NCBI GenBank assembly: GCA_964421125.1
Contig: CAYQVD010000002.1
Span: forward strand, 13,579-77,578
Reading direction: 5' to 3'
Origin: an uncultured Bdellovibrionales bacterium
GTDB taxonomy: Bacteria > Patescibacteriota > Minisyncoccia > Moranbacterales > DUUL01
DNA: 64,000 nt
Part shown: positions 3,091 through 61,931 of the stretch, in pieces
How positions within the stretch are numbered: position 1 is the first letter of the stretch
Layout of the letters: the number at the start of each line of letters is the position of its first letter
Made by a program: the position numbers and the translations under genes
The notes under the pieces: generated by a model
What the model saw: the letters and a program-made list of their open reading frames with translations, nothing else
What the model was told of the DNA's origin: nothing
Databases searched by the model: none

Positions 3091-3795
3091 CTACTTTTCT
3101 ATGCTTCTATTTTCCACAATAATCGCAAATTCACCTTTAACTTTGTCTGAATTTTCTTCGAAATAATCAAGAATTTCACTTACATTTCCCCTTTTCACCT
3201 GCTCAAACATCTTTGTCAATTCTCGTCCAACGACCAAATTTGGCTCAATTCCCTGTTTTTGACTTAATTCCTGCAAAAGATTAAGATTTTTCATCAAACG
3301 ATGCGGAGATTCAAAAAAAACCACTGGAATTTCACTCTCTAGAAGTTTTCCGAAAAACTTGTTACGCCCCTTTTTCTGGGGGGTAAAACCCCAAAATTGG
3401 AACTTTGACATGTTTAATCCCGAAACTGAGATCAAGGATGTCAGAGAAGATGGTCCAGGGATGGAGATAACGTCAATTTCGTCTCCCAAAAGTTCCCAAA
3501 CTCTTGAAATAAGCTCATTTCCAGGGTCTGAAAGGCCTGGAGTGCCTGCATCTGATACAAGTGCCAAGTCATCCCCATTCTTAAGCCTTTCCAGTATCTT
3601 CTCAAACTTTTGAAAGTTACTTTTTCGATGAAATGAATCAGTTGGTTTGTCGATTTCGAAGTGATTTAAGAGATTTCGAGTCACCCTCGTGTCTTCACAC
3701 AAAATCAAATCAACACTTTTCAGCACTTCAACTGCCCGAAAAGTCATATCCCCCAAATTCCCAATTGGTGTCGCTACTATGTATAATTTAGACAT
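3091..3795 (-). CDS. rsmI: 16S rRNA (cytidine1402-2'-O)-methyltransferase RsmI.
   Basis: MSKLYIVATPIGNLGDMTFRAVEVL...LCEDTRVTRNLL, which is the tetrapyrrole-methylase fold signature of RsmI. Confidence 0.9.
   Translation of the reverse strand: MSKLYIVATPIGNLGDMTFRAVEVLKSVDLILCEDTRVTRNLLNHFEIDKPTDSFHRKSNFQKFEKILERLKNGDDLALVSDAGTPGLSDPGNELISRVWELLGDEIDVISIPGPSSLTSLISVSGLNMSKFQFWGFTPQKKGRNKFFGKLLESEIPVVFFESPHRLMKNLNLLQELSQKQGIEPNLVVGRELTKMFEQVKRGNVSEILDYFEENSDKVKGEFAIIVENRSIEK
3734..3792. repeat. Direct repeat copy A: the first 59 bp of rsmI coding sequence.
   Basis: Identical 59-mer at 4910..4968. About 66 bp match with one mismatch. Confidence 0.9.
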
Positions 3796-3816
3796 TTATT
3801 TTTATCAAAAATTATT

Positions 3817-3841
3817 TACAAAAGACTTCCAAGAAAGAAGT
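3817..3841 (-). terminator. Hairpin aaagacttc/gaagtcttt downstream of the cassette's last gene and just upstream of the rsmI start.
   Basis: 9-bp inverted repeat with a 7-nt loop, followed on the minus strand by a T-rich tract. Confidence 0.4.
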
Positions 3842-3877
3842 CTTTAAAAAAACTAATGAAAACTGTGAGAATTTACT

Positions 3878-4069
3878 CTAATTTTTACACTCACTCAAGT
3901 CAACTTTTTCGCCAAATTTTTTTTCGTATCTTCTTATTAGACCCAACTGATCTTCATTAGCCTTTTTGACAGCTTTTCTTAATATTTTTACTTTGTCAGC
4001 CGAAGACATCTCGAAATAATTCCGAGAGACTTTTTTTTCTTTTTTAAATATTTTCTTAAAATCTAACAT
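3878..4069 (-). CDS. Small 63-aa protein translationally coupled to the zeta-toxin-like gene. It is a candidate partner or antitoxin.
   Basis: Its start overlaps the upstream gene's stop by 7 nt. Basic/acidic helical composition. Confidence 0.45.
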   Translation of the reverse strand: MLDFKKIFKKEKKVSRNYFEMSSADKVKILRKAVKKANEDQLGLIRRYEKKFGEKVDLSECKN

Positions 4070-4803
4070 ATTTTTGAAATTAATGATTGCTTAGTGTATT
4101 TCATTTTTAAATGGTTGTCAACACTATCTATGTTTAGATTAATTTTTACTTCAAACCTATTTACATCCTTATCATTATTATACAACCTTTCAATTAAAGT
4201 TAATTCAATCTGAGATCCAAACTCCTTCTTTATTTGATTTACATTGTCTTTTGCTTTAAATAAGGATTCAACAAAAAAATCTTCTGGAATCGATCTACCC
4301 TCTTCATCCGATCTCTTAATGGTAAAATTCCATGCCACAATTGGATCAATATACAGATAAAATATTCCGACACTACGATCTTTGTCTAAAGATCTTTTTA
4401 CATTGTCCCGTGACTTTTTATAATTTGAAAATGTATTATCAAGAATAATGTTTTGTTTTTTATTTAATGAAAAATCAAATATCTTTTCAACTCCCACATT
4501 TGAAGCTGACTTAAAAATATCAGTATTGGTACCGTCATAGCCAATATCACCAAAAAAACTCCGTATCTCATCATCATCAATCCGAACAATTCCTCCGTCA
4601 CACTTAAAGCTAACCAACTTCTCGATAAGCCCACTTTCAATCAACCCCTTAGATGTTTCTGTTTTTCCTGCCCCAGGAGAACCTGCCATGAAAATCGAAA
4701 AAGGCTTTTCCGTTGATGGATATTTATCCAGAGAAGCAAATTGCTCAAGCAATCTTTTTTTATTTTCTTTTAAATATTTTTTTGCCTCCTCTGATTTCTT
4801 CAT
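4063..4803 (-). CDS. Zeta-toxin family P-loop kinase (UDP-GlcNAc kinase-like toxin domain).
   Basis: Walker A MAGSPGAGKTETSKG and the downstream RIDDDEIRSFF motif, resembling the GQPGAGKT and IDxDxxR motifs of zeta/PezT toxins. Length of 246 aa matches the domain. Confidence 0.7.
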   Translation of the reverse strand: MKKSEEAKKYLKENKKRLLEQFASLDKYPSTEKPFSIFMAGSPGAGKTETSKGLIESGLIEKLVSFKCDGGIVRIDDDEIRSFFGDIGYDGTNTDIFKSASNVGVEKIFDFSLNKKQNIILDNTFSNYKKSRDNVKRSLDKDRSVGIFYLYIDPIVAWNFTIKRSDEEGRSIPEDFFVESLFKAKDNVNQIKKEFGSQIELTLIERLYNNDKDVNRFEVKINLNIDSVDNHLKMKYTKQSLISKIC

Positions 4804-4815
4804 GTTTCTTTATAT

Positions 4816-4843
4816 ATTATAACAGAAAATCTAAATTCGACAA
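4816..4843 (-). promoter_or_regulatory. Sigma-70-like promoter for the zeta cassette.
   Basis: On the minus strand: TTGTCG, a 16-nt spacer, TATAAT, then 14 nt to the ATG. Confidence 0.4.
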
Positions 4844-4902
4844 ATTCTATTCATTCTTGCTGAAACAGGATTGTAACTCAGTTCATTGTTTTCTTCAAAC
4901 AT

Positions 4903-4971
4903 TTCAACCGCCCGAAAAGTCATATCCCCCAAATTCCCAATTGGTGTCGCTACTATGTATAATTTAGATAT
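4903..4971 (-). pseudogene. Duplicated, diverged 5' fragment of rsmI. The start codon has become ATA.
   Basis: Translates ISKLYIVATPIGNLGDMTFRAVE, then diverges from RsmI. Confidence 0.8.
4910..4968. repeat. Direct repeat copy B of the rsmI 5' end.
   Basis: Identical to 3734..3792, 1176 bp away. Confidence 0.9.
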
Positions 4972-4985
4972 ATATTAAAATTAAT

Positions 4986-5561
4986 TTACTTTAATTTTGT
5001 TTCAGCAAAATTTTTTATTTCCAACCAACTATCCAAAGCGTCTGGTATGGAAAATTCAATGTGTTGCCCAATCATGGAAGTGTCTACGGTTCTCTGCTTC
5101 CATGACACCGAAATAATATCTTTCTTCAAAAGGTCAGATGGCCACTCACGCAAAATACCCCCTTCTTTATGTGAGCAAATATTTCAAATAATTCTCATAA
5201 ATTGAAACCATTGTTGCGCCTTATAAACTGGAAACTGATTCGTTTCATCACAATATTTCAAAATAATTTCATGTGATTCACGAAGAATAGATCTCATGAG
5301 ACTGGATTCAAATTCGGACAACATTAATTCTCTTCCATTTCTTGTTTTGTTTAACATGATATGGGAAATATCTCTTAAAGGCACTTCCAATAAAGTTTGA
5401 TCTGATCTTTTAAATTTAGCATTTTGTGTTGAAATTTCCATCCATTTCTGTTCAGGTATTATTCTAGTTGCTAAATTTCCAAATAAAAAATTATTTCGAA
5501 TATTTAATAAACTACCTAATAATTCAGCTTTTGTCATGCTTCTAAAATAAAAATATTTCAA
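4986..5561 (-). pseudogene. Hypothetical protein gene interrupted by an in-frame TGA at 5184..5186. Likely start at 5537 (MTKAELL).
   Basis: An N-terminal 117-aa ORF ends with TGA. A further 65 codons follow in the same frame (GGILREWPSDLLKKDIISVSWKQRTVDTSMIGQHIEFSIPDALDSWLEIKNFAETKLK) before a TAA. Confidence 0.45.
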
Positions 5562-5745: not shown

Positions 5746-8058
5746 TTAATCTCTGATCTCCCCTTCCTCCCCAACCTGATCAAGCTGAACAGAAAGAAGT
5801 TGTGAGATTCCACCATCGTTCATGGAAACTCCATAGAGAACAGTAGCTTCTTTCATGGTTTGACGATTATGAGTGACAAGCACAAACTGGGTCTTATTTG
5901 AAAGTTGTCTTAAAATTTTTCCAAATCTTTTGGAATTTGCTTCGTCAAGTGATGCTTCAACTTCATCAAGAATTGCAAATGGTGGTGGATTATGAGAAAT
6001 AATTGCGAAAAGAAGTGCAATTGAAGTCAAAGCTCTTTCCCCACCAGAAAGCATCCCAAGATTAGAAATTTTCTTTCCTGGAGGACAAGCCTTAATCTCA
6101 ATTCCAATCTGAACATCATCCTCATCAATTTCCTCAACATCCAAATCAATTTCATTACCATGTTCATCTACTTCAACGTCTTTTCCGCTAGTTCTTTTTC
6201 TTATTTCAACCTTAACCAATTCTGCTTTTCCACCATCAAAAATAATTTTAAAATATTCTGCAAACTTTTTGTTAATATTCTCAAAAGTCTCTTCAAAGCT
6301 TCCCTTAATGTTATGATCCATCTCTTTAATGATCTTCCGAAGACTTTTAATTGCTTCTTCCAAATCTCCTGATTCTTTTGAAAGAAAATCATACCGCTCT
6401 TGTGTCTCTTGATATTCCTGCAAAATTGTTTCATCAATTGCTCCAACCTGTTCAAGTTGAAATTTGAGTCGCTCAATGGCATGTTCCCATTTGTTCACAT
6501 CAACATCGATGGTCTTTTTCTCAAGTTTTTCTGGACCAATCTTCATCTCTTTTTCAATTCGAATCTGCAAATCCTCTTCTCGAACCTCCAATTTCGCAAG
6601 CTCCAATTTATAATCGTTAAATTGATCCTTCACTTTTTCAGTCTCGAATTGTTTTCTTCGAAGTTGATCTTCCAACTTAATCATTTCTCGACGTTCATCT
6701 TGATCACTCTTAACAAGCTCATTAATTTTTTCACGAATCTTTTCTCTCTTGCCTTCAATTTCATTTCTTTCTTTTTCCAGTTTTTCAACTCCTGATTGCA
6801 TTACTGAAAGCCTTTTTTGTCCCTCTTCTTGAATTGCTCTCAATTTGTCCACTTGTTTTTTCTTTTCAATCTTTCCCTTAATCACTCCTTGATGAAGCTC
6901 TGAAAGATCAATTGATATTTTCTCTGCGTAATCTTTAAGCTCTTTCAAGTCTCCAATTTTTTTCAAGGCTGAGATTTTTTCAACCAATTGACCTTGTCTT
7001 TTTTGAAGATCTTCAAGTCTTGTCCTGATGAATCCTGCATCAACTGGAATTATTTCAATTACTTTAATTTCTTTCTGTCGCTCTTTTTCAAGCTCCATCT
7101 TTCCTTGTTCGATAATCAGTTTTCTTTCCAAATCATTTGAAAAATGATTCACTTTTCGTTCTTCTTCTTCAAGTTTTTGAATTTCCTCTTGATGATCAGC
7201 TTTATTCCCAGACTCTTTACTCAATTTGTCTTTAATTTCATCAATTTCTCGTTGATTTATCATAATCTGCTTAGAAAAATCATCCCTAATTCCAGAAGAC
7301 TGATTTTTTTCAGTTTGAATCTTATTCCAAAGAAAACCAAAAAATTCATTCTGTTTTCGTTTCAAATTTGCTCGATATTCATCGCCTTTTTCTGCCTTTT
7401 GGCTTTGACGACGAAGCGTGTTGAGATGTGGTTCAATTTCAATTAAAAGTCCCTTCACTCTTTCAATATTAACCTTGGTTAATCTCAGCTTCCTCTCACT
7501 TCGATCTTTTTTAATTTGATGCTCTTTCACTCCAGCGACTTCTTCAATCATCACCCGTCGCTCCACAGGAGTTGCATTCAAAACATGATCAGCCATTCCT
7601 TGATTGATGATACAATAACTTCGTTGGCCAATTCCAGCTTTTGCAAGCATATCAACAATATCTAAAAGTCGAACCTTACTTCCATTGATAAGATATTCAC
7701 TTTCTCCACTTCGATAAATCTTTCTTGAAATCACTAAGTCATCATAATCAATTGGAATTTTTTTGGAAGAGTTGTCCAAATACATTGAAACTTGAGCACT
7801 TCCTAATTGAGATTTCTTTCCTGATCCAGCAAAAATGATATCTTCAGACTTCTTTCCTCGTAAAGTTTTCATTGATTGCTCTCCCATAGACCATTTCAAA
7901 GCATCTGCAATATTTGATTTTCCAGATCCATTTGGTCCAACAATCGCCGTGATTCCAAGGGTTTTCCCATTACTCAAAACACCAGCTTTGGAAAAATCCA
8001 GAACTGTTTTCTTTGCAAATGATTTAAAACCGCTCATTTCAAGTTTTTTTAGAAACAT
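5746..8058 (-). CDS. smc: SMC-family chromosome segregation ATPase, unusually short at 770 aa.
   Basis: N-terminal Walker A GPNGSGKSN, a long coiled coil, then C-terminal LSGGERALTSIALLFAI and the D-loop AILDEVEASLD. Confidence 0.8.
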   Translation of the reverse strand: MFLKKLEMSGFKSFAKKTVLDFSKAGVLSNGKTLGITAIVGPNGSGKSNIADALKWSMGEQSMKTLRGKKSEDIIFAGSGKKSQLGSAQVSMYLDNSSKKIPIDYDDLVISRKIYRSGESEYLINGSKVRLLDIVDMLAKAGIGQRSYCIINQGMADHVLNATPVERRVMIEEVAGVKEHQIKKDRSERKLRLTKVNIERVKGLLIEIEPHLNTLRRQSQKAEKGDEYRANLKRKQNEFFGFLWNKIQTEKNQSSGIRDDFSKQIMINQREIDEIKDKLSKESGNKADHQEEIQKLEEEERKVNHFSNDLERKLIIEQGKMELEKERQKEIKVIEIIPVDAGFIRTRLEDLQKRQGQLVEKISALKKIGDLKELKDYAEKISIDLSELHQGVIKGKIEKKKQVDKLRAIQEEGQKRLSVMQSGVEKLEKERNEIEGKREKIREKINELVKSDQDERREMIKLEDQLRRKQFETEKVKDQFNDYKLELAKLEVREEDLQIRIEKEMKIGPEKLEKKTIDVDVNKWEHAIERLKFQLEQVGAIDETILQEYQETQERYDFLSKESGDLEEAIKSLRKIIKEMDHNIKGSFEETFENINKKFAEYFKIIFDGGKAELVKVEIRKRTSGKDVEVDEHGNEIDLDVEEIDEDDVQIGIEIKACPPGKKISNLGMLSGGERALTSIALLFAIISHNPPPFAILDEVEASLDEANSKRFGKILRQLSNKTQFVLVTHNRQTMKEATVLYGVSMNDGGISQLLSVQLDQVGEEGEIRD

Positions 8059-23631: not shown

Positions 23632-25722
23632 CTACTGAATCTCTCCACTCTTAATCTTTTCCGCAACATTCGCTGGCACCTCTGAGTAACGTTCAAACTC
23701 CATTGAATAATTTGCCCGTCCTTGAGTCATTGATCTCAATTGAGTTGCATATCCAAACAAAGATGCAAGAGGAACTTTAGCATTAATAACTTTAACAGCC
23801 GCAGAACCTTCTCCTCTATCAGTCATGTCTTCTATTTTACCTCTTTTAGCATTCAGATCTCCAACAACATCACCCATGAAATTTTCTGGAGTAGTTACTT
23901 CGACTTTCATTACTGGCTCTAGAATAATTGGAGTAGCCTTTTTAACTGCTGCCTGAAAAGCCATTGACCCAGCAATCTTAAAAGCTGCTTCAGAAGAGTC
24001 AACATCATGATAAGATCCATCATAAACAGTCGCTTTAACATCAACCATTGGATAACCAGCAATAACTCCTTTGTCGGTTGCCTCTTTAATCCCCTTTCCA
24101 ATAGATGGAATAAACTCACTTGGAATAGATCCACCCTTAATTTCATCAACAAATTCAAATCCATTTCCTTCTCCAAGTGGCTCAATTCTAACCCAACAAT
24201 GTCCATATTGACCACGTCCACCAGATTGTTTAATATATTTTCCTTCAGCCTCAGCTTGAGACTTAATCGTTTCTCGATAAGCAACTTGTGGCTTACCAAC
24301 ATTAGCTTCAACACTGAATTCTCTTTTCATCCGATCAACAATAATATCCAAATGCAATTCTCCCATTCCCGAAATTAGAGTTTGATTTGTATCTTCATCA
24401 GTTCGAACTTGAAAAGTGGGATCCTCTTCAGCAAGCTTTCTTAAAGCAATTGCCATTTTTTCTTGATCAGCCTTTGTTTTTGGTTCAACTGCAATATCAA
24501 TAACTGGGTCTGGAAAATCAATATTCTCTAAAATAACTGGAGCATCTTCATCACAAAGTGTATCACCAGTTTTCGTACTTTTCATTCCAACTAAAGCTCC
24601 AATTCCGCCAGCATAAATCTCATCAATTTCTTCTCTGTGATTTGAATGCATCATAAGAATTCTTCCGATCCGCTCTTTTTTCCCATTTGTAGAATTCAAA
24701 ACATAAGATCCAGCTTTCAATATCCCAGAATAAATTCGGAAAAAAGTTAATTGACCTACATATGGATCTGTTGCAACTTTAAATGCCAAAGCTGCAAATG
24801 GAGCTTCATCGCTTGCTTCACGAACAATTTCTTTCTCTGAATCATTAATATCAACCCCTTTGATTGCTTCAACCTCAACCGGTGAAGGTAAATAATCAAC
24901 AACAGCATCTAAAACTGGTTGAACACCTTTATTTTTAAGAGCGGTTCCTGTTAAAACTGGAATCAACTTCCCGCTAAGAACTCCTATTCTAATTCCTTCT
25001 TTAATTTCATCTTCAGTAAAATCTTCTCCTCCAAGGTATTTCTCAGTTAGTTCATTACTCATTTCAGCAACCTTTTCAATCAACTTATTTCGCCATTCTT
25101 GTGCAATATCTTTCATATCCTCTGGAATATTTTTTTCCACAACAGTTTCCCCAGCTTGCCCTTCATAATTAAGAGCTTTCATTTTCACTAAATCAATAGC
25201 CCCCTGATGATCACTACTTTGACCAATCGGATATTGAATCGCTACAGCATTTGGTGTTAATCGATTCCAAATTGAAGAAAGCGCATCTTCAAAACTCGCT
25301 CCTTCTTTATCAATTTTATTAATAAAACAAATACGAGGCACTTTATACTTATCAGCTTGTCGCCAAACAGTTTCTGATTGTGGCTCAACTCCTTCTTTTC
25401 CATCGAAAATAACAACCCCTCCATCAAGAACACGAAGAGATCTTTCAACTTCCACGGTAAAATCAACATGACCTGGAGTATCAATAATATTAATTTGATG
25501 CTCTTTCCATTGACAAGTTGTTGCAGCAGAAGTAATAGTAATCCCCCTCTCTTGCTCTTGTTCCATCCAATCCATAATCGCTTCTCCTTCATGAACTTCT
25601 CCAATTTTATGAGAAATTCCAGTATAAAAAAGAATTCTCTCGGAAATAGTTGTTTTCCCAGCATCAATATGAGCAATAATACCGATATTTCGATATTTTT
25701 TAATAGGAGTTTGTCGCGCCAT
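23632..25722 (-). CDS. fusA: Elongation factor G.
   Basis: [17 protein letters not shown] and the EF-G domains. Confidence 0.97.
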
Positions 25723-34821: not shown

Positions 34822-35257
34822 AAAAAAATAATTAATTAAAAAATATTATCACACTTAAAAATATCTGATTGCAATGCAATCCCCTTTTAAGAATAATCTT
34901 CATTCTCTCTGGGAATAAAATTTTCTACAAAAATTTTGTCTGAAAACCCAAATTTTGTCCTAGAGTCTATTTCTAATCTCCATATTCTGCTGCAAATTCC
35001 TAATTTCAGCTACAAAAAACTCATCACTCGTTGAAATAACATTCGTTATTCCTTCCTCATTCTTCACTTTTTTCGCTTGAACTTTGAAATTTTCGTAACG
35101 AAAGAGAAATTAGGAATAGACTCTTGATCGTCCAAGGTGGTATTGAATGTGGGTAAGATTTTCAGTTATAAAATTTAGGGTTTGAGTTTATTTTTTAGAA
35201 AATTTTGTTTCCAAAGAGAAGCTCTTTTCAAATCCACCGCCAACCCAAACACAATTG

Positions 35258-35330
35258 AGATGTGGATAATGTATTTTTGAGAACATGACATTCTAATGGA
35301 ATTTTTCGAAAAAATATATTATCCACATCT
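35258..35330. repeat. Palindromic intergenic element, copy 1.
   Basis: agatgtggataatgtattttt...catgacattctaatgg...aaaaaatatattatccacatct. The arms contain TTATCCACA and TGTGGATAA. Confidence 0.85.
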
Positions 35331-35371: not shown

Positions 35372-36706
35372 CTAATCAGTTCTTTCAGAAACAATCACCT
35401 TTTCTCCTGCCTTCAATCCGCTCTTAATTTCTATCATTCCACTATCCCCTTCTAGTCCAACTTGAATCTGTCGCTTCTCAATATTTCCAAGCTCATCAAT
35501 AATTTTCACGGATGTTTTCGATTCATCATAATTAACAGCACTCTGTGGAATTGTCAAAACGCTTTCTCTATTATCTATAAGAATATCTACGTCTGCGCTC
35601 ATTCCTTCTTTCAAACGAGAATCAATTTTATTAAGCTTTAATTTAGCTTTATAATAAACAACATCCTGAATAATTGTAGCAGCTGGATTGATCTCAATGA
35701 CTTGTGCTTCAATTGTTTCATCAAAAGATAACGCGTCAAAAGATAGTTCTGCTATTTGATCAATTTGAACCTTTGAAATATCAGATTCTGAAATCATAGC
35801 TTCCAAAATGAAATCCTTGGAAATCATTTTTCCAAAACTTGTTACACCGACCGAAGAAGATCCTAAAACCTCCCCTTCTTCATAATTAATTTCAGCAATC
35901 ATTCCATTGACTGGAGCTTTCAAGGAAGATTTTTCTAAATTAGCAACTGCGATATCATAATCAGCTCGAGCAGCTTCAACAACTGCATCCCGACTTCTTT
36001 CTGCATATTGAGACTTGGCTGTTTTTAATGATTTCTTAGCAGAACTCAGTAAATTCTCAGCAGAAACTTTTGCTAAATCTTTTGCCTTATTAACAGTTTC
36101 GATTGCTTGATCTGCACTATTTTTACTTGTTTCAGCCGATCTCATTGTCAACTTAGCACTTTGCACTGCAACACTGCCCTCACCTGAAGCAGTAACATTC
36201 AAATCATAATACTCAACTGCTTCATTATAATAATCACTAGCATCTTCATAGGCCTGTTGTGCTGCTAAAACTTTTTGATCCTCTAGGTCATCCACCTCAC
36301 TTAGATAATCCTCAGCATTATCAACTGCCTGTTCTAATTCTCGAATTGTATCATCACTAGAGCCAGCATCAGCAACAGCTTTATTAAGAGCAATTTCGGC
36401 TTTCTCGAGCTGTTTAGTTAAAACATCGCTCGAAAGATTTGCTAAGACTTCTCCGTCTCCAATTTCATCTCCAATTTCAACTTTCACTACTCCCACTCGA
36501 CCAGAGTTTTCAAAATTTAAAACAACCTCACTTTCCGACTTCAAATCACCCGTTGCCGAAACAGTTTGAGAAATATTTTCGACCTGAACTTCTTCAATAA
36601 GATATTTTTCATTAACATCTTCATCTGTTTGAAATCTCCAAACAATAAAACTAGCTATAATAATAGCAATAACTAAACCAGTAATTATTTTTTTCTTTTT
36701 TGACAT
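35372..36706 (-). CDS. HlyD/membrane-fusion-protein family periplasmic adaptor.
   Basis: N-terminal TM, a long coiled coil, and a C-terminal beta-barrel/lipoyl-like domain. The ORF's N-terminal extension to 36784 is rejected. Confidence 0.7.
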   Translation of the reverse strand: MSKKKKIITGLVIAIIIASFIVWRFQTDEDVNEKYLIEEVQVENISQTVSATGDLKSESEVVLNFENSGRVGVVKVEIGDEIGDGEVLANLSSDVLTKQLEKAEIALNKAVADAGSSDDTIRELEQAVDNAEDYLSEVDDLEDQKVLAAQQAYEDASDYYNEAVEYYDLNVTASGEGSVAVQSAKLTMRSAETSKNSADQAIETVNKAKDLAKVSAENLLSSAKKSLKTAKSQYAERSRDAVVEAARADYDIAVANLEKSSLKAPVNGMIAEINYEEGEVLGSSSVGVTSFGKMISKDFILEAMISESDISKVQIDQIAELSFDALSFDETIEAQVIEINPAATIIQDVVYYKAKLKLNKIDSRLKEGMSADVDILIDNRESVLTIPQSAVNYDESKTSVKIIDELGNIEKRQIQVGLEGDSGMIEIKSGLKAGEKVIVSERTD

Positions 36707-36752
36707 TTTTTTTATTTTTAACACAACAAAAACTTTTTTATTATCAGTTAAG

Positions 36753-36821
36753 CTGTAGATAATGTATTTTCGAGAGCATGACATTCTGATGGAATTTTTC
36801 GAGAAAATATGTTATCTATAG
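36753..36821. repeat. Palindromic intergenic element, copy 2.
   Basis: ctgtagataatgtattttcgagagcatgacattctgatggaatttttcgagaaaatatgttatctatag. Confidence 0.85.
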
Positions 36822-36829
36822 TTTAATCC

Positions 36830-37711
36830 CTATTTCATATTTCTATTATATAACGTTAATGTATTTTTTAAAAGCATTGCAACTGTCACCGGACCAACCC
36901 CGCCAGGCACTGGTGTTATGAATCTTACTTTTTCTTCCGCTTCTTTAAAATTAACATCTCCTAAAATATCATCTCCCTCTTTTGTAATCCCTATATCAAT
37001 CACTACTGCATTTTCTTTAATCGTATCTCCACCAATGAACTCTGGGCGACCGACCGCCGAAATTAGAAGATCGGCCTTGATTGTTTTATTTTTCAACTCA
37101 GAATCATCTGCTTGGATCAAATCAATTTTTCCACCCCGACACTCAAGAACTTTAGCTAAACTTTTTCCGAAAATATCAGAATTTGAAACTACACAAACTT
37201 TTTTATCTTTCAAATCAAAATCAATATCCTCCAATATTTCAATCACAACCTGCAACACTGGCGGAATCACATCTTCATGGCTACACGTTTCCAACAGCTT
37301 TTTCAAGTTTTCTGGATGAAATCGATCAACATCTTTTTCTGGATCAATAGCTTTAATAATCCTGTCCGTATCAAGACCTTCCGGTAACGGCAACTGAACC
37401 AAAATCGCATCCACATCATCATCTTGATTTAAATATTCTATTGTTTTTATAATGTCCTCTTCCGACGCTTCTTGCGAACTTCGATAAACATTAATATTCA
37501 TCCCCACCTTCCTAGCTTCTTTTTCTTTCAATTTAACATAGAGTTTTGAATCCTCTCTTTCGCCAATCAAAACAATCGCAAGTCCTGGCATTCGTTTTCC
37601 TGCTTCTTGCAATTTAACAATTTCCCTTCTCGCTTCGCTACTAATCCTTTCAGCAATTTTCTTGCCATCAATAATCTTCGCTAATTTTTTTTTCATTTTT
37701 TTCATTAACAA
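36830..37711 (-). CDS. folD: Bifunctional methylene-THF dehydrogenase/cyclohydrolase.
   Basis: Signatures IIDGKKIA...GLAIVLIG... and PVPGGVGPVTVAMLL. Confidence 0.9.
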   Translation of the reverse strand: MLMKKMKKKLAKIIDGKKIAERISSEARREIVKLQEAGKRMPGLAIVLIGEREDSKLYVKLKEKEARKVGMNINVYRSSQEASEEDIIKTIEYLNQDDDVDAILVQLPLPEGLDTDRIIKAIDPEKDVDRFHPENLKKLLETCSHEDVIPPVLQVVIEILEDIDFDLKDKKVCVVSNSDIFGKSLAKVLECRGGKIDLIQADDSELKNKTIKADLLISAVGRPEFIGGDTIKENAVVIDIGITKEGDDILGDVNFKEAEEKVRFITPVPGGVGPVTVAMLLKNTLTLYNRNMK

Positions 37712-42556: not shown

Positions 42557-42606
42557 TTATTTTCAGTTATTTAAGTTATTTTCTTAAAAACTATATTCAA
42601 TCAATT

Positions 42607-42678
42607 TAGATGTAGATAATGTATTTTCGAGGATCTCGCCATTCTGATGGCGTTGCGAGAAAAAATGTTATCTACATC
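42607..42678. repeat. Palindromic intergenic element, copy 3. Its internal loop is replaced by a compensatory cgccat/atggcg hairpin.
   Basis: agatgtagataatgtattttcgag...cgccattctgatggcg...gagaaaaaatgttatctacatct. Confidence 0.85.
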
Positions 42679-47966: not shown

Positions 47967-48034
47967 TGTAGATAATGTATTTTCGAGAGCATGACATTCT
48001 AATGAAATTTTTCGAGAAAATATGTTATCTACAT
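47967..48034. repeat. Palindromic intergenic element, copy 4.
   Basis: tgtagataatgtattttcgagagcatgacattctaatgaaatttttcgagaaaatatgttatctacat. Confidence 0.85.
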
Positions 48035-48095
48035 TTCAATCGCTAATCTCATTCGATATTTTAAATAATAGTTTACTAATCTAAATATAAAAAAC

Positions 48096-50935: not shown

Positions 50936-51008
50936 TGTAGCCAAATATAAACTATTTTTTATGCGAACTTTTTATTTTTGAATAACAATACTTTATATGT
51001 TATGCGAA

Positions 51009-51908
51009 CTACTCACTCTTCCCAAATTTCTCAAAAGCTCTCAGGACTTCAAGTGGAAGTGCAAAAACAACTGTATTGGATTGATCGGAAGAAAGATCAT
51101 TAAGCGTGTGTAACGTTCGAAGGTGAAGTGACCCTACTTGTTGAGAAAGAACTCCGGCTGCCTTAGAAATATTCCCAGAAGCCACAACTTCTCCTTCGGA
51201 TTTAATGATTACCGCTCTTTTTTCTCTTTCTGCTTCAGCTTGCTTTCCAATCACTCTTTTCATTTCTTCTGGCAAAGTAACATCTTTTAGTTCAACTGAA
51301 TTGACACTAACTCCCCAAGCGTCAGTTGCTTTGTCTACAATAAGTCTAATTTTTTCAGCAATTGTGTTTCGATTTGAAAGAAGTTCATCTAAGTCAACCT
51401 CTCCAGCTACATTTCGCATAGTTGTTTGAGCCAGTTGTGAAACTGCATAAAAGAAATCTTCTACTTCAATAATTGCCTTCTCGGCATCAACAATCTTATA
51501 ATAAATAACAGCATTGACTGTCACAGAAATATTGTCTTTAGTAATTGCCTCTTGATCCGGCACGTCCACTGCCTTTATTCGCATATCAACTTTTTGGTAT
51601 GATTGGAAGACTGGAATGACAATTTTCCATCCTGGCTCCATAATTCCAGCAAATTTTCCCATTGTGAACTTCACTCCTTTTTCATATTGGTTGATTTGCT
51701 TGATAGAAATCAGCAAAACAACAATCGCGATGACAATGATTGTTAAAAATCCCATGTTTTTATTATTAATAATTAAATCTAAATTTAAAAATCCACCAAA
51801 CGAATCAAAAATAAATCCCAGAAAAATCAGCCAAAAAATCCATTTGCCTTTGCCAAGTTGATCTCCTAATTTTTTAAAATCTATTTCTTGATTATTATTC
51901 TTCCTCAT
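51009..51908 (-). CDS. SPFH/band-7 (stomatin-like) membrane protein.
   Basis: N-terminal TM and an SPFH core. Confidence 0.8.
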   Translation of the reverse strand: MRKNNNQEIDFKKLGDQLGKGKWIFWLIFLGFIFDSFGGFLNLDLIINNKNMGFLTIIVIAIVVLLISIKQINQYEKGVKFTMGKFAGIMEPGWKIVIPVFQSYQKVDMRIKAVDVPDQEAITKDNISVTVNAVIYYKIVDAEKAIIEVEDFFYAVSQLAQTTMRNVAGEVDLDELLSNRNTIAEKIRLIVDKATDAWGVSVNSVELKDVTLPEEMKRVIGKQAEAEREKRAVIIKSEGEVVASGNISKAAGVLSQQVGSLHLRTLHTLNDLSSDQSNTVVFALPLEVLRAFEKFGKSE

Positions 51909-59200: not shown

Positions 59201-61108
59201 CTACTTCTTCATCACTTCTAAAAATGCTTTTTGTGGAATTTCAGCTTTTCCGGATTGAGTCATTCGCTTCTTTCCTTTCTTTTGTTTTTCGAGAAGTTTT
59301 CTCTTTCTTGTTATATCACCTCCATAAAGATGTCCTGTAACATCCTTTCGATAAGCCTTAATATTTTCTCGAGCAATCATTTTTCCACCAATCGCTGCTT
59401 GTATTTTAATTAAAAAGTTTTGTCGAGGAATAACCTCTTTCAATTTTCCAACAACTCTTCTTCCCTCGCTAACAGCATTTTCTCGTGGAACAATTTGAGA
59501 GAAAGCATCCACTTTGTCTTCTGCAACATAAATATCCATTCGCACTAAATCATAAGCTTGATATCCAGAAACTTCGTAATTCATTGAAGCAAAACCACTC
59601 GTAGCTGATTTCAAAAAATCATGAAAATTAATAATCACTTCTGAAAGTGGTGCATCGAAATGCAAAACAATTCTTTCCTTATCTAAATATTCCGTAGAAA
59701 GATAGATTGCCCTGGTTGTGTCATTAACAAGTCTCATAATCGCTCCTAAATATTCAGCAGGAGAAATAATATCAAGTTTCACCATCGGCTCAAGAATCTC
59801 TTTAATCATATTACTATCTGGCACCTCCGAAGCAGAATAAATATTCTTCTCACTTCCATCTGTTTTCACAATCTTGTAAACAACACTAGGAGAAGTAATC
59901 ACTGGATTGAAATCAAATTCTCGTTTCAATCGCTCTTGAACAATTTCTAAATGAAGCAAACCTAAAAATCCAATTCGAAAACCTCTGCCTAAAGATTGAG
60001 AACTTTCTCCTTCAAAAGCCAATGCGGCATCATTCAATTTTAATTTGTCTAGCGCATCTCGCATTTGATTATAATCCTCCCCTTCAACTGGATAAAAGCT
60101 TGCGTAAACCATTGGTCTCACAACTTTATATCCCGGCAAAGGCTCTATCTTATTTTGCTTTTTCGTATTACTGATATTTGATCTTAAATCGTCTTTTTTA
60201 AATTCAGCTTTTTGAATTGATTTGGAAACTGGAAATTGGAAATTGGAAATTTGCGCCAGAGTTATTGTGTCCCCCACTCGACATTCTTCAACACTCTTCA
60301 ACCCTGTTGCAATGTATCCAACTTCTCCAGCTTTTAGGTCTGACGTAGAATCAAGCTGAGGTCGAAACTTCCCTACTTCAATTGAATCCGCCTTGGAATT
60401 GGTAGCAATAAATTTAATTTCATCTCCCTTCGTAATTCCTCCATCAACAATTCTAACAAAAGCCAAAACTCCTTTATATGAATCATATTTAGAATCAAAA
60501 ATAAGCGCTCTCAAAGGCGCCTCCGAATTTCCACTTGGCGCTGGAACTTTTTCCACAATTCTTTCTAAAATCAAATCCATTCCTTCTCCAGTTTTTCCAC
60601 TAGCTAAAAGCACTTCATTTTCATCACATCCTAAAATTGAAACGATTTCTGCTTTTGTTTTCTCAACTTCTGCGTTAGACAAATCAATCTTGTTTAAAAC
60701 TGGAATAATTTCCAAGTCTTGTTCAATCGCTTGATAAAGATTCGCAAGTGTTTGAGCTTGAACTCCCTTCGTTGCATCCACTAATAAAACTGCTCCTTCA
60801 ACCGCAGCCAATGATCTAGAAACCTCATAACCAAAATCAACATGACCAGGTGTGTCAATTAGATTTAACATATATTCCTTATATTGCATCGTAGCTGGTT
60901 GCAATTTAATTGTAATTCCCCTTTCTCTTTCCAAATCCATCTGATCCAAAAACTGTTCTTTCATTTCTCTCTTCTCAATTGTTCCAGTCATTTCTAAAAA
61001 CCGATCAGCGAGAGTTGATTTCCCATGATCAATATGAGCAATTATACAAAAATTTCTAATATTTTCTTGATTCATCAATTTGTCATTCCCATAAAAATGG
61101 AAATCCAT
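59201..61108 (-). CDS. lepA: Elongation factor 4 (LepA). The start is probably at 61072 (MNQENIRNF...).
   Basis: AHIDHGKST and DTPGHVDF motifs plus the LepA-specific C-terminal domain. Contains a ggaaatt x3 micro-repeat at about 60228-60250. Confidence 0.95.
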   Translation of the reverse strand: MDFHFYGNDKLMNQENIRNFCIIAHIDHGKSTLADRFLEMTGTIEKREMKEQFLDQMDLERERGITIKLQPATMQYKEYMLNLIDTPGHVDFGYEVSRSLAAVEGAVLLVDATKGVQAQTLANLYQAIEQDLEIIPVLNKIDLSNAEVEKTKAEIVSILGCDENEVLLASGKTGEGMDLILERIVEKVPAPSGNSEAPLRALIFDSKYDSYKGVLAFVRIVDGGITKGDEIKFIATNSKADSIEVGKFRPQLDSTSDLKAGEVGYIATGLKSVEECRVGDTITLAQISNFQFPVSKSIQKAEFKKDDLRSNISNTKKQNKIEPLPGYKVVRPMVYASFYPVEGEDYNQMRDALDKLKLNDAALAFEGESSQSLGRGFRIGFLGLLHLEIVQERLKREFDFNPVITSPSVVYKIVKTDGSEKNIYSASEVPDSNMIKEILEPMVKLDIISPAEYLGAIMRLVNDTTRAIYLSTEYLDKERIVLHFDAPLSEVIINFHDFLKSATSGFASMNYEVSGYQAYDLVRMDIYVAEDKVDAFSQIVPRENAVSEGRRVVGKLKEVIPRQNFLIKIQAAIGGKMIARENIKAYRKDVTGHLYGGDITRKRKLLEKQKKGKKRMTQSGKAEIPQKAFLEVMKK

Positions 61109-61115
61109 TTATTTA

Positions 61116-61931
61116 TTAAAGTGGACTTTTAATATTCTTTAGTTTCGGATTTGTTACTTTAGTATAAATTTGTGTTGTTCTAATATTAGCATGACCAAGT
61201 AATTCTTGAACATATCTCACATCAGTTCCATTTTCAAGTAAATGCGTCGCAAAACTGTGTCGAAGTGAATGAAACGTCGCAGATTTTTTTATCCTTGATC
61301 TAATAAGTGCTACATGAAAAACTTTCTGCAATGAAGTAGTTGTTAATTTCCCTCCACGATTACTTTCGAATAAAAAATCGCCCCCATTCTTTCCTAAAAT
61401 CAAAGATTGAATTTCTTCCTTTATTTTTTCAGGAAAAACCGTAATTCGATCTTTTTTCCCTTTGGCATTTTTAATATGAATTATCAATTCTGCTAAGTCA
61501 ACATCTTTCACTTTTAAACTAACAACTTCACTCACCCTAAGACCAGCAGCATATCCCAATGAAACCATTAATTTATGCTTCAAATTTTTGATTTCGTTTA
61601 TAATTTTTTCAATCTCCCCTCTTGATAAAACAACTGGCAATTTTTGACTTCTCTTGGCACATTTAAAGTCAATCTTTTCTTTCAGTTTCAGAACTTCATA
61701 ATATAAAAATTTAACAGAATTCAATGCTAGATTAATTGTTTGAGAAGAATTTCCTTGTTTTTGTCTTTCTAATAAAAAATTTTCAATGGCCTTATTTCTA
61801 TCTTTGATATTTTCTTGCTTAGAAAAATTCAAATATTCTTTTATGTAGAATAAGTAAGCCTTTATTGTCTTTTGACTATAATTTCTTAATTTAAGTAAAT
61901 TTTCTGTTTTTTCTAGAATTGAAGATTGCAT
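61116..61931 (-). CDS. Tyrosine-type site-specific recombinase/integrase (XerC/XerD-like, short).
   Basis: C-terminal catalytic motif HSLRHSFATHLLENG...LLGH...TQIYT. Confidence 0.8.
   Translation of the reverse strand: MQSSILEKTENLLKLRNYSQKTIKAYLFYIKEYLNFSKQENIKDRNKAIENFLLERQKQGNSSQTINLALNSVKFLYYEVLKLKEKIDFKCAKRSQKLPVVLSRGEIEKIINEIKNLKHKLMVSLGYAAGLRVSEVVSLKVKDVDLAELIIHIKNAKGKKDRITVFPEKIKEEIQSLILGKNGGDFLFESNRGGKLTTTSLQKVFHVALIRSRIKKSATFHSLRHSFATHLLENGTDVRYVQELLGHANIRTTQIYTKVTNPKLKNIKSPL

Follow-up and report, generated by a model that had tools for sequence, protein, structure and literature searches.

The epsilon/zeta and PezA/PezT systems are compact two-gene operons, the toxins of which carry a Zeta_toxin domain. 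A catalytic Asp (zeta Asp67, PezT Asp66) deprotonates the substrate, and the GTXR motif (PezT Gly116-Thr120) binds UDP-N-acetylglucosamine (UNAG) and defines the UNAG kinase zeta toxins (PMC6362051). An operon order with the toxin gene first has been documented for the AvrRxo1:Arc1 family, AvrRxo1 being a zeta-like NAD kinase, including candidates in Parcubacteria (PMC4938570).

Three further groups of systems are relevant to insertions at the 5′ ends of conserved genes. SXT/R391 elements (at prfC) and dusA-specific elements are 20–100 kb long, encode their own tyrosine integrase and excisionase, and occupy the same site in many genomes. Elements of this type have short cores of about 17–21 bp. 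They insert into the 5′ coding end of a housekeeping gene and leave direct repeats at both junctions (PMC8409611). CIMEs have arisen from ICEs or IMEs by decay and are moved by a related element arriving at the same site; they are bounded by att-like direct repeats and lack integration genes (PMC5704250). Campbell-type integration and template-switch insertion, in contrast, are outcomes of general recombination and do not represent a named family of mobile elements.

We have analysed a cassette at the 5′ end of rsmI in a window of 64,000 nt, i.e. the whole stretch of DNA under study (contig CAYQVD010000002.1 of an uncultured member of the Patescibacteria, forward strand, positions 13,579 to 77,578). 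With moderate confidence, we propose that a toxin-antitoxin (TA)-like module entered the rsmI 5′ end in a single, integrase-independent duplicative insertion after the split from the nearest sampled relative.

Results

The 5′ end of rsmI is present twice

The rsmI gene (3795..3091, minus strand) is intact and encodes a protein of 234 aa that matches TIGR00096, the family of the 16S rRNA C1402 2′-O-methyltransferase RsmI, with 218 bits (cut-off 167.9). When the window was compared with itself, positions 3734–3792 and 4910–4968 were found to be identical over 59 nt, and toleration of one mismatch enlarged the match to 66 nt (3727–3792), so that the alignment of the copies bears out both repeat lengths given in the initial annotation. 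The ungapped similarity extends over 77 nt (3724–3800 versus 4900–4976; 95% identity, blastn E 1.4e-27). Beyond these borders the identity drops to ~0.28, i.e. to chance level. The four mismatches (3726/4902, 3733/4909, 3793/4969, and 3796/4972) crowd at the edges of the 77 nt, with a probability of ~0.011 if they were placed at random. Such clustering is also expected from recombination of partly diverged att-like sites or from central gene conversion.

The duplicated segment comprises the first 72–77 nt (24 codons) of rsmI. The proximal copy (3724..3800, minus strand) contains the start of the live gene, with its ATG at 3795..3793, codons 1–24, and ~5 nt upstream; its perfect core is 3734–3792. 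The distal copy (4900..4976, minus strand; perfect core 4910–4968) is what remains of the original rsmI 5′ end, a dead stub, as had been claimed: where the live copy has its ATG, it reads ATA (4971..4969), and an in-frame stop lies two codons upstream of the ATA. Codon 24 is ATG (4902..4900) in the stub versus GTG in the live gene.

The 59-nt core has no dyad or inverted arms of the type recognised by recombinases, the only inverted pair being a trivial one of 7 nt that reaches outside the core, and it was not found in IMG/VR. Another repeat family of the window, at 35–48 kb, is a palindromic element and is unrelated to the rsmI repeats.

The cassette encodes a zeta-fold kinase and an overlapping small protein

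The 1.1 kb between the repeat copies contain, on the minus strand, a promoter-like site, a kinase gene, an overlapping gene for a 63-aa protein, and a hairpin. The promoter-like site (4843..4816) consists of TTGTCG, a 16-nt spacer, and a TG-extended TATAAT (10/12 positions, a consensus match only), and it is located 12 nt ahead of the kinase start codon. The kinase gene (4803..4063) encodes 246 aa. The start of the partner gene (4069..3878, 63 aa) overlaps the kinase stop by 7 nt (ATGTTAG), and the pairing is conserved, in agreement with the coupling that had been suggested. The hairpin at the 3′ end (3845..3821) has a 10-bp stem, a 5-nt loop, and a U-interrupted tail (dG −16.9 kcal/mol, z −2.3). 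Both the promoter and the hairpin had been predicted and are present, but the T-tail of the hairpin is too weak for a terminator scan to accept it, and it would probably terminate transcription weakly or moderately. Similar hairpins are found 3′ of the partner gene in two other loci (L172 and L232).

The cassette contains these two genes only, and thus no integrase, as initially noted. Its ends have no terminal inverted repeats, and there is no transposase. Target-site duplications of transposons are short and of fixed length, 2–15 bp. A transposon with a target-site duplication was rejected on these grounds, the duplication being 72–77 nt long. A foreign composition of the cassette was also rejected, because its GC content of 29.4%, compared with a window mean of 32.9%, is at the 12th percentile and thus not anomalous.

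Assignment of the 246-aa protein to the zeta-toxin family is supported by three types of evidence. First, residues 27–205 match Pfam Zeta_toxin (PF06414) with an E-value of 1.9e-29 and 103 bits (gathering cut-off 22.3). Second, a profile of the kinase family matches Neisseria zeta1, PezT, and zeta; AvrRxo1 is absent from the best 60 of the 107 PDB sequence matches to this profile (E <= 1). Third, for the AlphaFold2 model (pLDDT 94.3) the top 13 fold matches in the PDB are all zeta, PezT, or Neisseria zeta1 (E 6e-10 to 2e-6, TM 0.5–0.62), followed at rank 14 by AvrRxo1 (4z8q, E 2e-6), with polynucleotide kinases and PFK-2 among the lower-ranked matches. The Walker A motif (G41-SPGAGKT-48) and the catalytic Asp (D78), which aligns with PezT Asp66 within an IDGD segment, are invariant in 36 homologues.

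The label “UNAG kinase”, which the initial annotation had attached to the family, is not justified, because the Arg of the GTXR motif is absent. The PezT segment E-G-T-L-R-T is aligned with D122-N-T124-F-S-N of the kinase, so that the kinase has the Thr but no Arg. The family consensus in this region is D-G-T-F-A, i.e. the Arg is missing across the family. Judging from these residues, the substrate is probably not UNAG. Many proteins with a Zeta_toxin domain are not known to be toxins.

The partner protein has no matches in Pfam, NCBIfam, PADLOC, or PHROGs, and no similarity to known antitoxins was detected. A word-index search for homologues returned only the protein itself. A single-sequence structure model predicts three helices, and no PDB fold matched this model.

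The two-gene module recurs in other genomic contexts

The arrangement of kinase gene, overlapping partner gene (57–68 aa), and hairpin recurs at five other genomic positions, and the order of kinase and then partner was seen in six Patescibacteria contexts and on a Shewanella plasmid. The pair is thus present in Patescibacteria, on contigs of proteobacterial-type prophages, and on the Shewanella plasmid, where the distant relative adjoins integrase genes. Genes for RNA modification or translation are frequent neighbours (rsmI, miaB, thrS, and mraZ-rsmH). In two loci, L172 and L175, module relatives are situated in the same thrS-miaB-rsmI neighbourhood, at other intergenic positions and not at rsmI, which suggests local relocation of the module. 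This genome yielded no donor copy of the module. A vector of phage or plasmid origin was considered and rejected, as no close copy of the module was found in IMG/VR, INPHARED, or PLSDB.

Flanking repeats comparable to those at rsmI are missing at 59 of the 60 other module loci and at the five other positions mentioned above. The one loose exception is an unrelated prophage (L199) with 63-nt repeats that are 78% identical; it was not accepted as a parallel, as only the downstream copy is conserved in related prophages.

The pair would act as a putative addiction module of the TA type, with the toxin gene first. The kinase would phosphorylate a substrate other than, or in addition to, UNAG, and the small helical partner would neutralise it as a putative antitoxin. 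Alternatively, the two genes might encode an ordinary small-molecule or nucleic-acid kinase and its regulatory or adaptor subunit, moved beside rsmI by chance. We regard this as possible, albeit somewhat doubtful. It would be in line with the family-wide loss of the Arg needed for UNAG binding (PMC6362051), with the absence of antitoxin families or folds related to the partner, with the polynucleotide kinases and PFK-2 among the fold matches, and with the frequent RNA-modification and translation genes in the vicinity; in addition, the pair has no match in PADLOC and nothing above any curated NCBIfam cut-off. However, proven toxins (zeta, PezT, Neisseria zeta1, and AvrRxo1) account for all of the best matches by sequence and by fold, and the compact, self-promoted layout with overlapping genes is typical of addiction modules. 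Furthermore, the module moves from one genomic setting to another, and prophages and plasmid DNA are among the places where it is found.

Relatives with empty sites reveal the polarity of the duplication

The initial annotation had proposed a search for empty sites in related genomes. Four relatives, L178, L007, L233, and L234, with RsmI proteins 92, 85, 83, and 81% identical to that of the window, have a single rsmI 5′ end with an ATG start and no cassette, and none of them has a match to the kinase or partner profiles. In L172, the gene order is SMC, 134 bp of intergenic DNA, and rsmI.

The distal flank of the window (4972..4984, minus strand; TTAATTTTAATAT) is identical at 13 of 13 nt to the sequence directly before the rsmI ATG of L178, and these 13 nt differ from the proximal flank. 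Therefore, the distal copy is the old rsmI start, which now reads ATA. The evidence for this polarity comes mainly from one contig of 1.4 kb (L178). The shared flank is limited to ~13 nt, because the ORF upstream in L178 and the ORF in the distal flank of the window have no detectable homology.

Every relative starts rsmI with ATG and carries GCG at codon 21. Measured against this ancestral state, each of the three differences in coding sequence is a G-to-A change; two of them are in the stub, and the third, which is synonymous, is in the live gene. The divergence between the window and L178 at four-fold sites is 0.20; from this value, the stub should have accumulated ~7 neutral changes after the two lineages separated, but it shows two (Poisson P ~0.02).

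To find an empty site in the same species, exact-protein look-ups were made with the upstream ORF as well as with the kinase, the partner, and RsmI; every contig recovered either contained the cassette or was a fragment broken near the repeats. A look-up of the RsmI product with a start at Met17, as expected after loop-out of the cassette, found nothing. A scan of metagenome contigs with RsmI revealed no relative above 58% identity and is thus uninformative about the empty site.

In principle, the cassette and both repeats could be ancestral, and the empty sites of the relatives could be clean deletions between the repeats, with no recent insertion in this genome. The site of L178, with one copy and the distal flank, is exactly what recombination between the 59-nt repeats would leave behind, and the module relatives in the thrS-miaB-rsmI region of L172 and L175 suggest a long residence there. 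Nevertheless, we consider an ancestral cassette highly improbable. It requires several independent losses, because four relatives at graded distances lack the cassette, three of them with unrelated upstream content. The deficit of changes in the stub also argues against it, as does the fact that the modules of L172 and L175 are not at rsmI.

The junctions are real, and one contig is permuted

L004, a contig from another sample, is 100% identical to the window over positions 5085..3616, and the distal copy is spanned by L003; the arrangement is therefore not an assembly chimera. L003 stops exactly at 3734. A further contig, L005 (1179 bp), is a circular permutation that consists of the cassette end, a hybrid repeat, and the cassette start, and a 3-nt overlap of its ends implies a unit of 1176 bp. 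This suggests a circle of 1176 bp or a tandem copy, and it could also be an assembly artefact. If the circular or tandem form is real, it would be in line with an element that is still active. A de Bruijn graph that meets a 59-nt repeat at low coverage could, however, also give rise to L005 and to the end of contig L003. The two contigs were therefore judged suggestive of mobility but explicable by assembly. Two others, L006 and L168, are unitigs (k=31) that end inside the repeat and are uninformative in this respect.

A proposed insertion without a dedicated integrase

In the insertion that we propose, a single duplicative recombination would have placed the module inside the rsmI 5′ end and copied codons 1–24, and it would have needed no dedicated integrase. 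Two routes could have led to this result. The first would be homologous integration by a single crossover (Campbell type), in which a small circle contributed the module and an rsmI 5′ segment. The second would be a template switch during replication, by which the module would be copied from a nearby site and replication would re-enter upstream of the point of exit. Since then, the stub would have gained its two G-to-A changes and the live copy its synonymous one.

The initial annotation had instead described the locus as a site-specific integration that restores the target gene's end. The insertion with a rebuilt rsmI 5′ end is supported by the four empty relatives and the L178 flank, whereas the site-specific part is not supported, as no recombinase is associated with the cassette and neither recurrence nor a dyad was seen. 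In its full form, this alternative invokes a tyrosine or serine recombinase encoded elsewhere and a cassette that is a minimal, integrase-less CIME-like or satellite element, the attP of which mimics rsmI codons 1–24. The 59-nt identity would be the att core and L005 the excised circle, on the models of SXT at prfC and the dusA-specific elements. Compatible with this view are the direct repeats, which lie at the 5′ end of rsmI, a conserved gene that is rebuilt with a new upstream region; the same outcome is documented for these models (PMC8409611). Elements that keep attL and attR after loss of the integrase are a recognised class (PMC5704250). The confinement of mismatches to the repeat edges, the attP-like hybrid junction of L005 with its 3-nt end overlap and 1176-bp unit, and the integrase genes beside the distant relative on the Shewanella plasmid also point in this direction, as does the tyrosine recombinase in the window to which the initial annotation had pointed (61116..61931), which reaches the NCBIfam XerA-type model at its cut-off.

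However, this gene is 56 kb away from the cassette and is of the XerA type, which suggests a housekeeping role in chromosome resolution, and no recombinase domain was found in the ORFs that flank the two-gene cassette. The other module positions lack comparable flanking repeats, with the one loose exception of L199, and the core has no inverted arms. No convincing second rsmI 5′ fragment was present in 161 loci and none in the four close relatives, so rsmI is not a recurrent target (0 of 165 other loci), and the idea of an insertion hotspot was dropped. The copies differ from each other by simple G-to-A decay of the sequence ancestral at this site, which looks like the ageing of one duplicated sequence and not like a diverged attP. 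Together with the possible assembly-based explanation of L005 and L003, these points make integration by a site-specific recombinase unlikely.

Consequences for rsmI

Following the insertion, the start-codon context and the immediate upstream DNA of rsmI are derived from the cassette side. A second promoter-like site (3903..3875, minus strand; TTGACT, 17-nt spacer, TAGAGT; 9/12, a consensus match only) in the 3′ end of the 63-aa gene could drive rsmI. Transcription of rsmI would now depend on read-through from the module promoter or on this site at the module 3′ end. Recombination between the 59-nt repeats would loop out the cassette and leave rsmI with an ATA start. Because loop-out restores the ATA start, loss of the module would now cost the cell rsmI.

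An extended version of these considerations is that the 1176-bp unit is a free-standing, integrase-less mobile TA cassette that carries the first 24 codons of its host gene, cycles between circle and chromosome by homologous recombination of the host, and locks itself in, the module relatives being earlier hops. We consider this quite improbable. If it were true, decay of the start to ATA would make loop-out cost the cell both the antitoxin and a ribosome-modification enzyme, and the relatives elsewhere in the thrS-miaB-rsmI neighbourhood would be the results of earlier hops of the same kind.

Discussion

The locus is a clear insertion footprint, and the event is not of an unusual kind. It is a well-preserved record of how a small module of the addiction type, which has no recombinase itself, enters the streamlined chromosome of a member of the Patescibacteria, and of how the start of a conserved housekeeping gene can be taken over by such an insertion. 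In addition, the analysis defines a widespread pair of a zeta-fold kinase without the UNAG-binding Arg and an unannotated helical partner of about 55–68 aa. Its value is that of a worked example and of a candidate TA subfamily; current understanding is not overturned.

The cassette resembles epsilon/zeta and PezA/PezT in its Zeta_toxin domain, the Walker A motif GSPGAGKT, the equivalence of D78 and PezT Asp66, and the compact two-gene operon, and the best fold matches are to structures of these systems (3q8x, 1gvn, and 2p5t). In contrast, the kinase is only 17–20% identical to these toxins, its GTXR region reads N-T-F-S, and the 63-aa partner is encoded downstream and is unlike epsilon or PezA, with no antitoxin or repressor gene upstream. 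The gene order is that of AvrRxo1:Arc1, i.e. the toxin gene is first and a short partner ORF follows directly. Unlike AvrRxo1, the kinase has 246 aa versus ~420 aa and no secretion context, and no similarity of its partner to Arc1 was detected.

With the SXT/R391 and dusA elements, the cassette shares the insertion into a 5′ coding end, the direct repeats at both junctions, and the supply of a new start context, and probably a promoter, for the interrupted gene. In contrast to these elements, it is only 1.1 kb long, has no integrase, is flanked by a duplication of 72–77 nt, and is unique among 166 rsmI loci. Like CIMEs, it is bounded by att-like direct repeats and lacks integration genes; unlike CIMEs, its boundaries hug a single two-gene module, and no parental element, remnant, or cognate integrase was seen here. 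For Campbell-type integration or template-switch insertion, neither a circular donor nor a source copy was found here. These processes generate flanking copies that are identical when formed and then decay independently, which fits the exclusive G-to-A differences between the two rsmI 5′ ends.

Organization of the rsmI locus

All relevant genes lie on the minus strand, and their order from 5′ to 3′ starts at the SMC gene (8058..5746) and ends at rsmI (3795..3091). Between them follow two lineage-specific ORFs of 125 aa (5561..5184) and 55 aa (5153..4986), the distal copy of a 77-nt repeat (4976..4900), a promoter-like site (4843..4816), a 246-aa kinase ORF (4803..4063), a 63-aa partner ORF (4069..3878) with another promoter-like site inside its end (3903..3875), a hairpin, and the proximal repeat copy (3800..3724), which opens rsmI. 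The full-length product of rsmI (234 aa) is RsmI, the 16S rRNA C1402 2′-O-methyltransferase (TIGR00096, 218 bits vs. a cut-off of 167.9). The closest species representative is UBA2193 (Patescibacteria bacterium), with an RsmI that is 85% identical.

The two repeat copies are 95% identical across 77 nt (blastn E 1.4e-27), and chance-level identity is reached just beyond. The initial annotation had reported an identical stretch of 59 nt (3734-3792 and 4910-4968), its extension to 66 nt with one mismatch, and the change of ATG to ATA in the distal copy, all of which are correct. Misassembly does not account for the arrangement of cassette and repeats. The window belongs to a 93-kb ENA contig, the same region was recovered at 100% identity in contigs of other samples, and one contig from another sample (L004) covers the cassette together with both repeats.

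Other repeats were also observed in the window. A ~75-nt imperfect palindrome, GATGTAGATAATGTATTTTCGAGA...TCGAGAAAATATGTTATCTACATC, is present in four copies of the same orientation, which are 81-91% identical and are located at or near intergenic gaps (35252-35328, 36743-36838, 42600-42677, and 47967-48052); copies 1 and 2 flank a 470-aa ORF (35372..36784). No Rfam match was found in the window. The palindrome resembles a hairpin element of the REP or MITE type, or else a shared terminator, and has no relation to the repeat at rsmI. Self-comparison also revealed a weak inverted pair (50956-51010 vs. 62033-61979, 85%, 55 nt) and a weak direct pair (25648-25699 vs. 61013-61065, 83%, 53 nt).

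Empty sites and age of the duplication

As suggested in the initial annotation, related genomes were compared for empty sites, and five loci have a single rsmI 5′ end without a cassette. Four belong to close relatives, with RsmI identities of 92% (L178), 85% (L007), 83% (L233), and 81% (L234); in the more distant L172, rsmI follows SMC after 134 bp. The kinase and partner profiles had zero matches in the four close relatives. The 13 nt preceding the ATG in L178, TTAATTTTAATAT, are the same as the flank of the distal copy in the window, whereas TTGATAAAAATAA stands before the proximal copy and continues the 3′ end of the cassette without a break. This identifies the distal copy as the original start of the gene, and the cassette, together with a fresh copy of codons 1-24, sits between this start and the body of rsmI. 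Both the empty sites and the flank in L178 support the earlier proposal that the insertion regenerated the end of rsmI.

In all four close relatives, the gene starts with ATG and codon 21 is GCG. Each of the three coding differences between the copies is therefore a single G-to-A change from the ancestral state, i.e. ATG to ATA at the start and GTG to ATG at codon 24 in the distal stub, and the synonymous GCG to GCA in the live gene. The divergence between the window and L178 at four-fold sites is 0.20. Under neutral drift since the split from L178, about seven changes would be expected in the stub, compared with the two observed (Poisson P ~0.02). Thus, the duplication probably postdates this split and was gained in this lineage, unless the copies were kept alike by gene conversion.

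The stretch from SMC to rsmI is hypervariable within the clade (window 4986-5561, minus strand; L007 3213-5976; L234 315-2416; L233 1-986; L172 1103-1236). A multi-gene set is common to L007 and L234, part of it is found in L233, and L172 has only the 134 bp. The two ORFs of the window have no match to these four intervals or to any protein family, and they might be one frameshifted gene.

The kinase and its partner

The 246-aa protein matches Pfam Zeta_toxin (E 1.9e-29). A family profile built from 36 homologues was run against PDB and matched Neisseria zeta1 (E 1.7e-8), PezT (9e-8), and zeta (1.5e-3). The best fold matches of the AlphaFold2 model (pLDDT 94.3) were epsilon/zeta, PezT, and Neisseria zeta1, followed by AvrRxo1. 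Two features do not vary within the family: the Walker A motif, GSPGAGKT, and D78, the counterpart of PezT Asp66 in the alignment. The agreement of Pfam, profile matches, and predicted fold bears out the assignment to the zeta family, and the prediction that the protein is a kinase is well supported. The designation as a UNAG kinase is not: UDP-N-acetylglucosamine is bound by a GTXR motif in zeta and PezT (PMC6362051), the corresponding position reads N-T-F-S, and the Arg is absent across the family.

The start of the partner gene overlaps the kinase stop by 7 nt (ATGTTAG). In all Patescibacteria contexts examined (L172, L173, L175, L176, L177, and L232), the kinase gene ends in an overlap with a homologous gene of 57-68 aa (profile E values of 1e-26 to 1e-37), and a Shewanella plasmid and a prophage contig still show the core motif of the partner after the kinase. 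The 63-aa protein is predicted to form three short helices, and searches of Pfam, NCBIfam, PADLOC, PHROGs, and PDB gave no match. Family resemblance and gene layout suggest that the pair is a toxin-antitoxin-like module of the zeta superfamily with a new partner family. It is a testable candidate for a toxin-antitoxin subfamily.

Occurrence of the module at other sites

The unit of promoter-like site, kinase, partner, and hairpin recurs at different genomic positions. It is divergent from miaB in L172 (3928-4862; toxin 69% identical), adjoins thrS in L175 (786-1726; 52%), lies between a kinase gene and mraZ-rsmH, directly upstream of the latter, in L176 (5001-5869, neighbours to 7731), and adjoins a PBECR3 nuclease gene in L232. 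The modules of L172 and L175 fall in the thrS-miaB-rsmI-smc neighbourhood of the window, at other intergenic positions, which points to repeated moves within the region and not to independent acquisitions. RsmH methylates C1402 of 16S rRNA, the same base as RsmI; the location of one module next to rsmH and of another at rsmI may be a coincidence.

More distant relatives were found on 53 IMG/VR contigs (30-45% identity) and eight plasmids (27-38%). No close copy of the cassette or of the 59-nt core is present on phage, viral, or plasmid records, and the GC content of the cassette is unremarkable.

The Shewanella putrefaciens plasmid pSA70-4 (CP078041.1, 15184-18843) carries a zeta-family gene that is 36% identical, and the gene after it encodes a “hypothetical protein” of 54 aa with a match to the partner profile (E 2.6e-5). 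The neighbours of this pair are a DUF3596 protein, possibly integrase-related, and a tyrosine recombinase gene that is truncated; the combination of kinase and partner thus spans phyla and can adjoin recombinases. On a GC-rich prophage contig (IMGVR_UViG_3300004233_000047), a 253-aa zeta relative and a 56-aa partner have a repressor-like gene on one side and a DNA methylase gene on the other. They lie between 63-nt direct repeats (3880-3942 and 4977-5039) that are 78% identical and 1097 nt apart, and related prophages retain the downstream copy alone.

Arrival of the cassette and probable consequences for rsmI

Formally, the structure is attL, insert, attR, and site-specific integration had been proposed initially. 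The clustering of mismatches at the repeat edges (P ~0.011) is partly in favour of this explanation, as are two contigs. L005 (1179 bp), whose two ends share 3 nt, leads from the 3′ end of the cassette through a hybrid repeat to the 5′ end of the cassette, and L003 breaks off precisely at 3734. Both would be explained by a genuine circle of 1176 bp or by a tandem copy, but by our reasoning also by graph collapse at the 59-nt repeat in low-coverage assemblies. However, no integrase was found in or beside the cassette, its absence inside being confirmed by the ORF content, and the one recombinase checked is of the XerA type and located 56 kb away. A convincing second rsmI 5′ fragment was found in none of 161 other rsmI loci and in 0 of 4 close relatives, which speaks against rsmI as a recurrent target. 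The 59-nt core lacks an inverted-arm structure, and comparable flanking repeats are absent in 59 of 60 other module contexts. With most of its defining features missing, site-specific integration is not supported. Because, in addition, the differences between the copies look like the decay of one duplicated local sequence, a one-off duplicative recombination is favoured. It could have occurred by single-crossover homologous integration of a small circle in which the module was joined to a 5′ segment of rsmI, or by a replication template switch with a target duplication of 72-77 nt.

The tyrosine recombinase (61116-61931, minus strand, 271 aa) scored 225 bits with the NCBIfam XerA-type model (cut-off 220) and 216 bits with the integron-integrase subfamily model, below the cut-off of 265. 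It is probably a housekeeping chromosome-resolution enzyme.

With a 10-bp stem, a dG of −16.9 kcal/mol, and a z of −2.3, the hairpin is stable, but the consensus T-tail is missing, and a terminator scan gave no call. Since it is not a called terminator, rsmI is probably transcribed by read-through from the predicted cassette promoter (4843..4816) or from the promoter-like site at 3903..3875. Because the start codon is located upstream of the 59-nt identity, a crossover between the repeats would fuse the ATA stub with the rest of the gene; loss of the cassette by this route would leave rsmI without a start codon.

Comparison with known systems

In classic zeta systems, the antitoxin gene is located upstream of the toxin gene. 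The module has the toxin-first order in common with AvrRxo1:Arc1 (PMC4938570), where this order is documented, but sequence comparison did not place it in that family: AvrRxo1 is not among the best 60 of 107 PDB matches of the kinase profile. The new element is the partner family; the zeta-superfamily module is of a known kind, here in toxin-first order. Entry at the 5′ end and rebuilding of the gene are likewise found for SXT at prfC and for dusA-specific islands (PMC8409611), and the cassette resembles CIMEs, which are also integrase-less (PMC5704250). The locus is a useful example that would not greatly surprise a specialist, i.e. an integrase-free insertion of a known kind with an unusually long target duplication.
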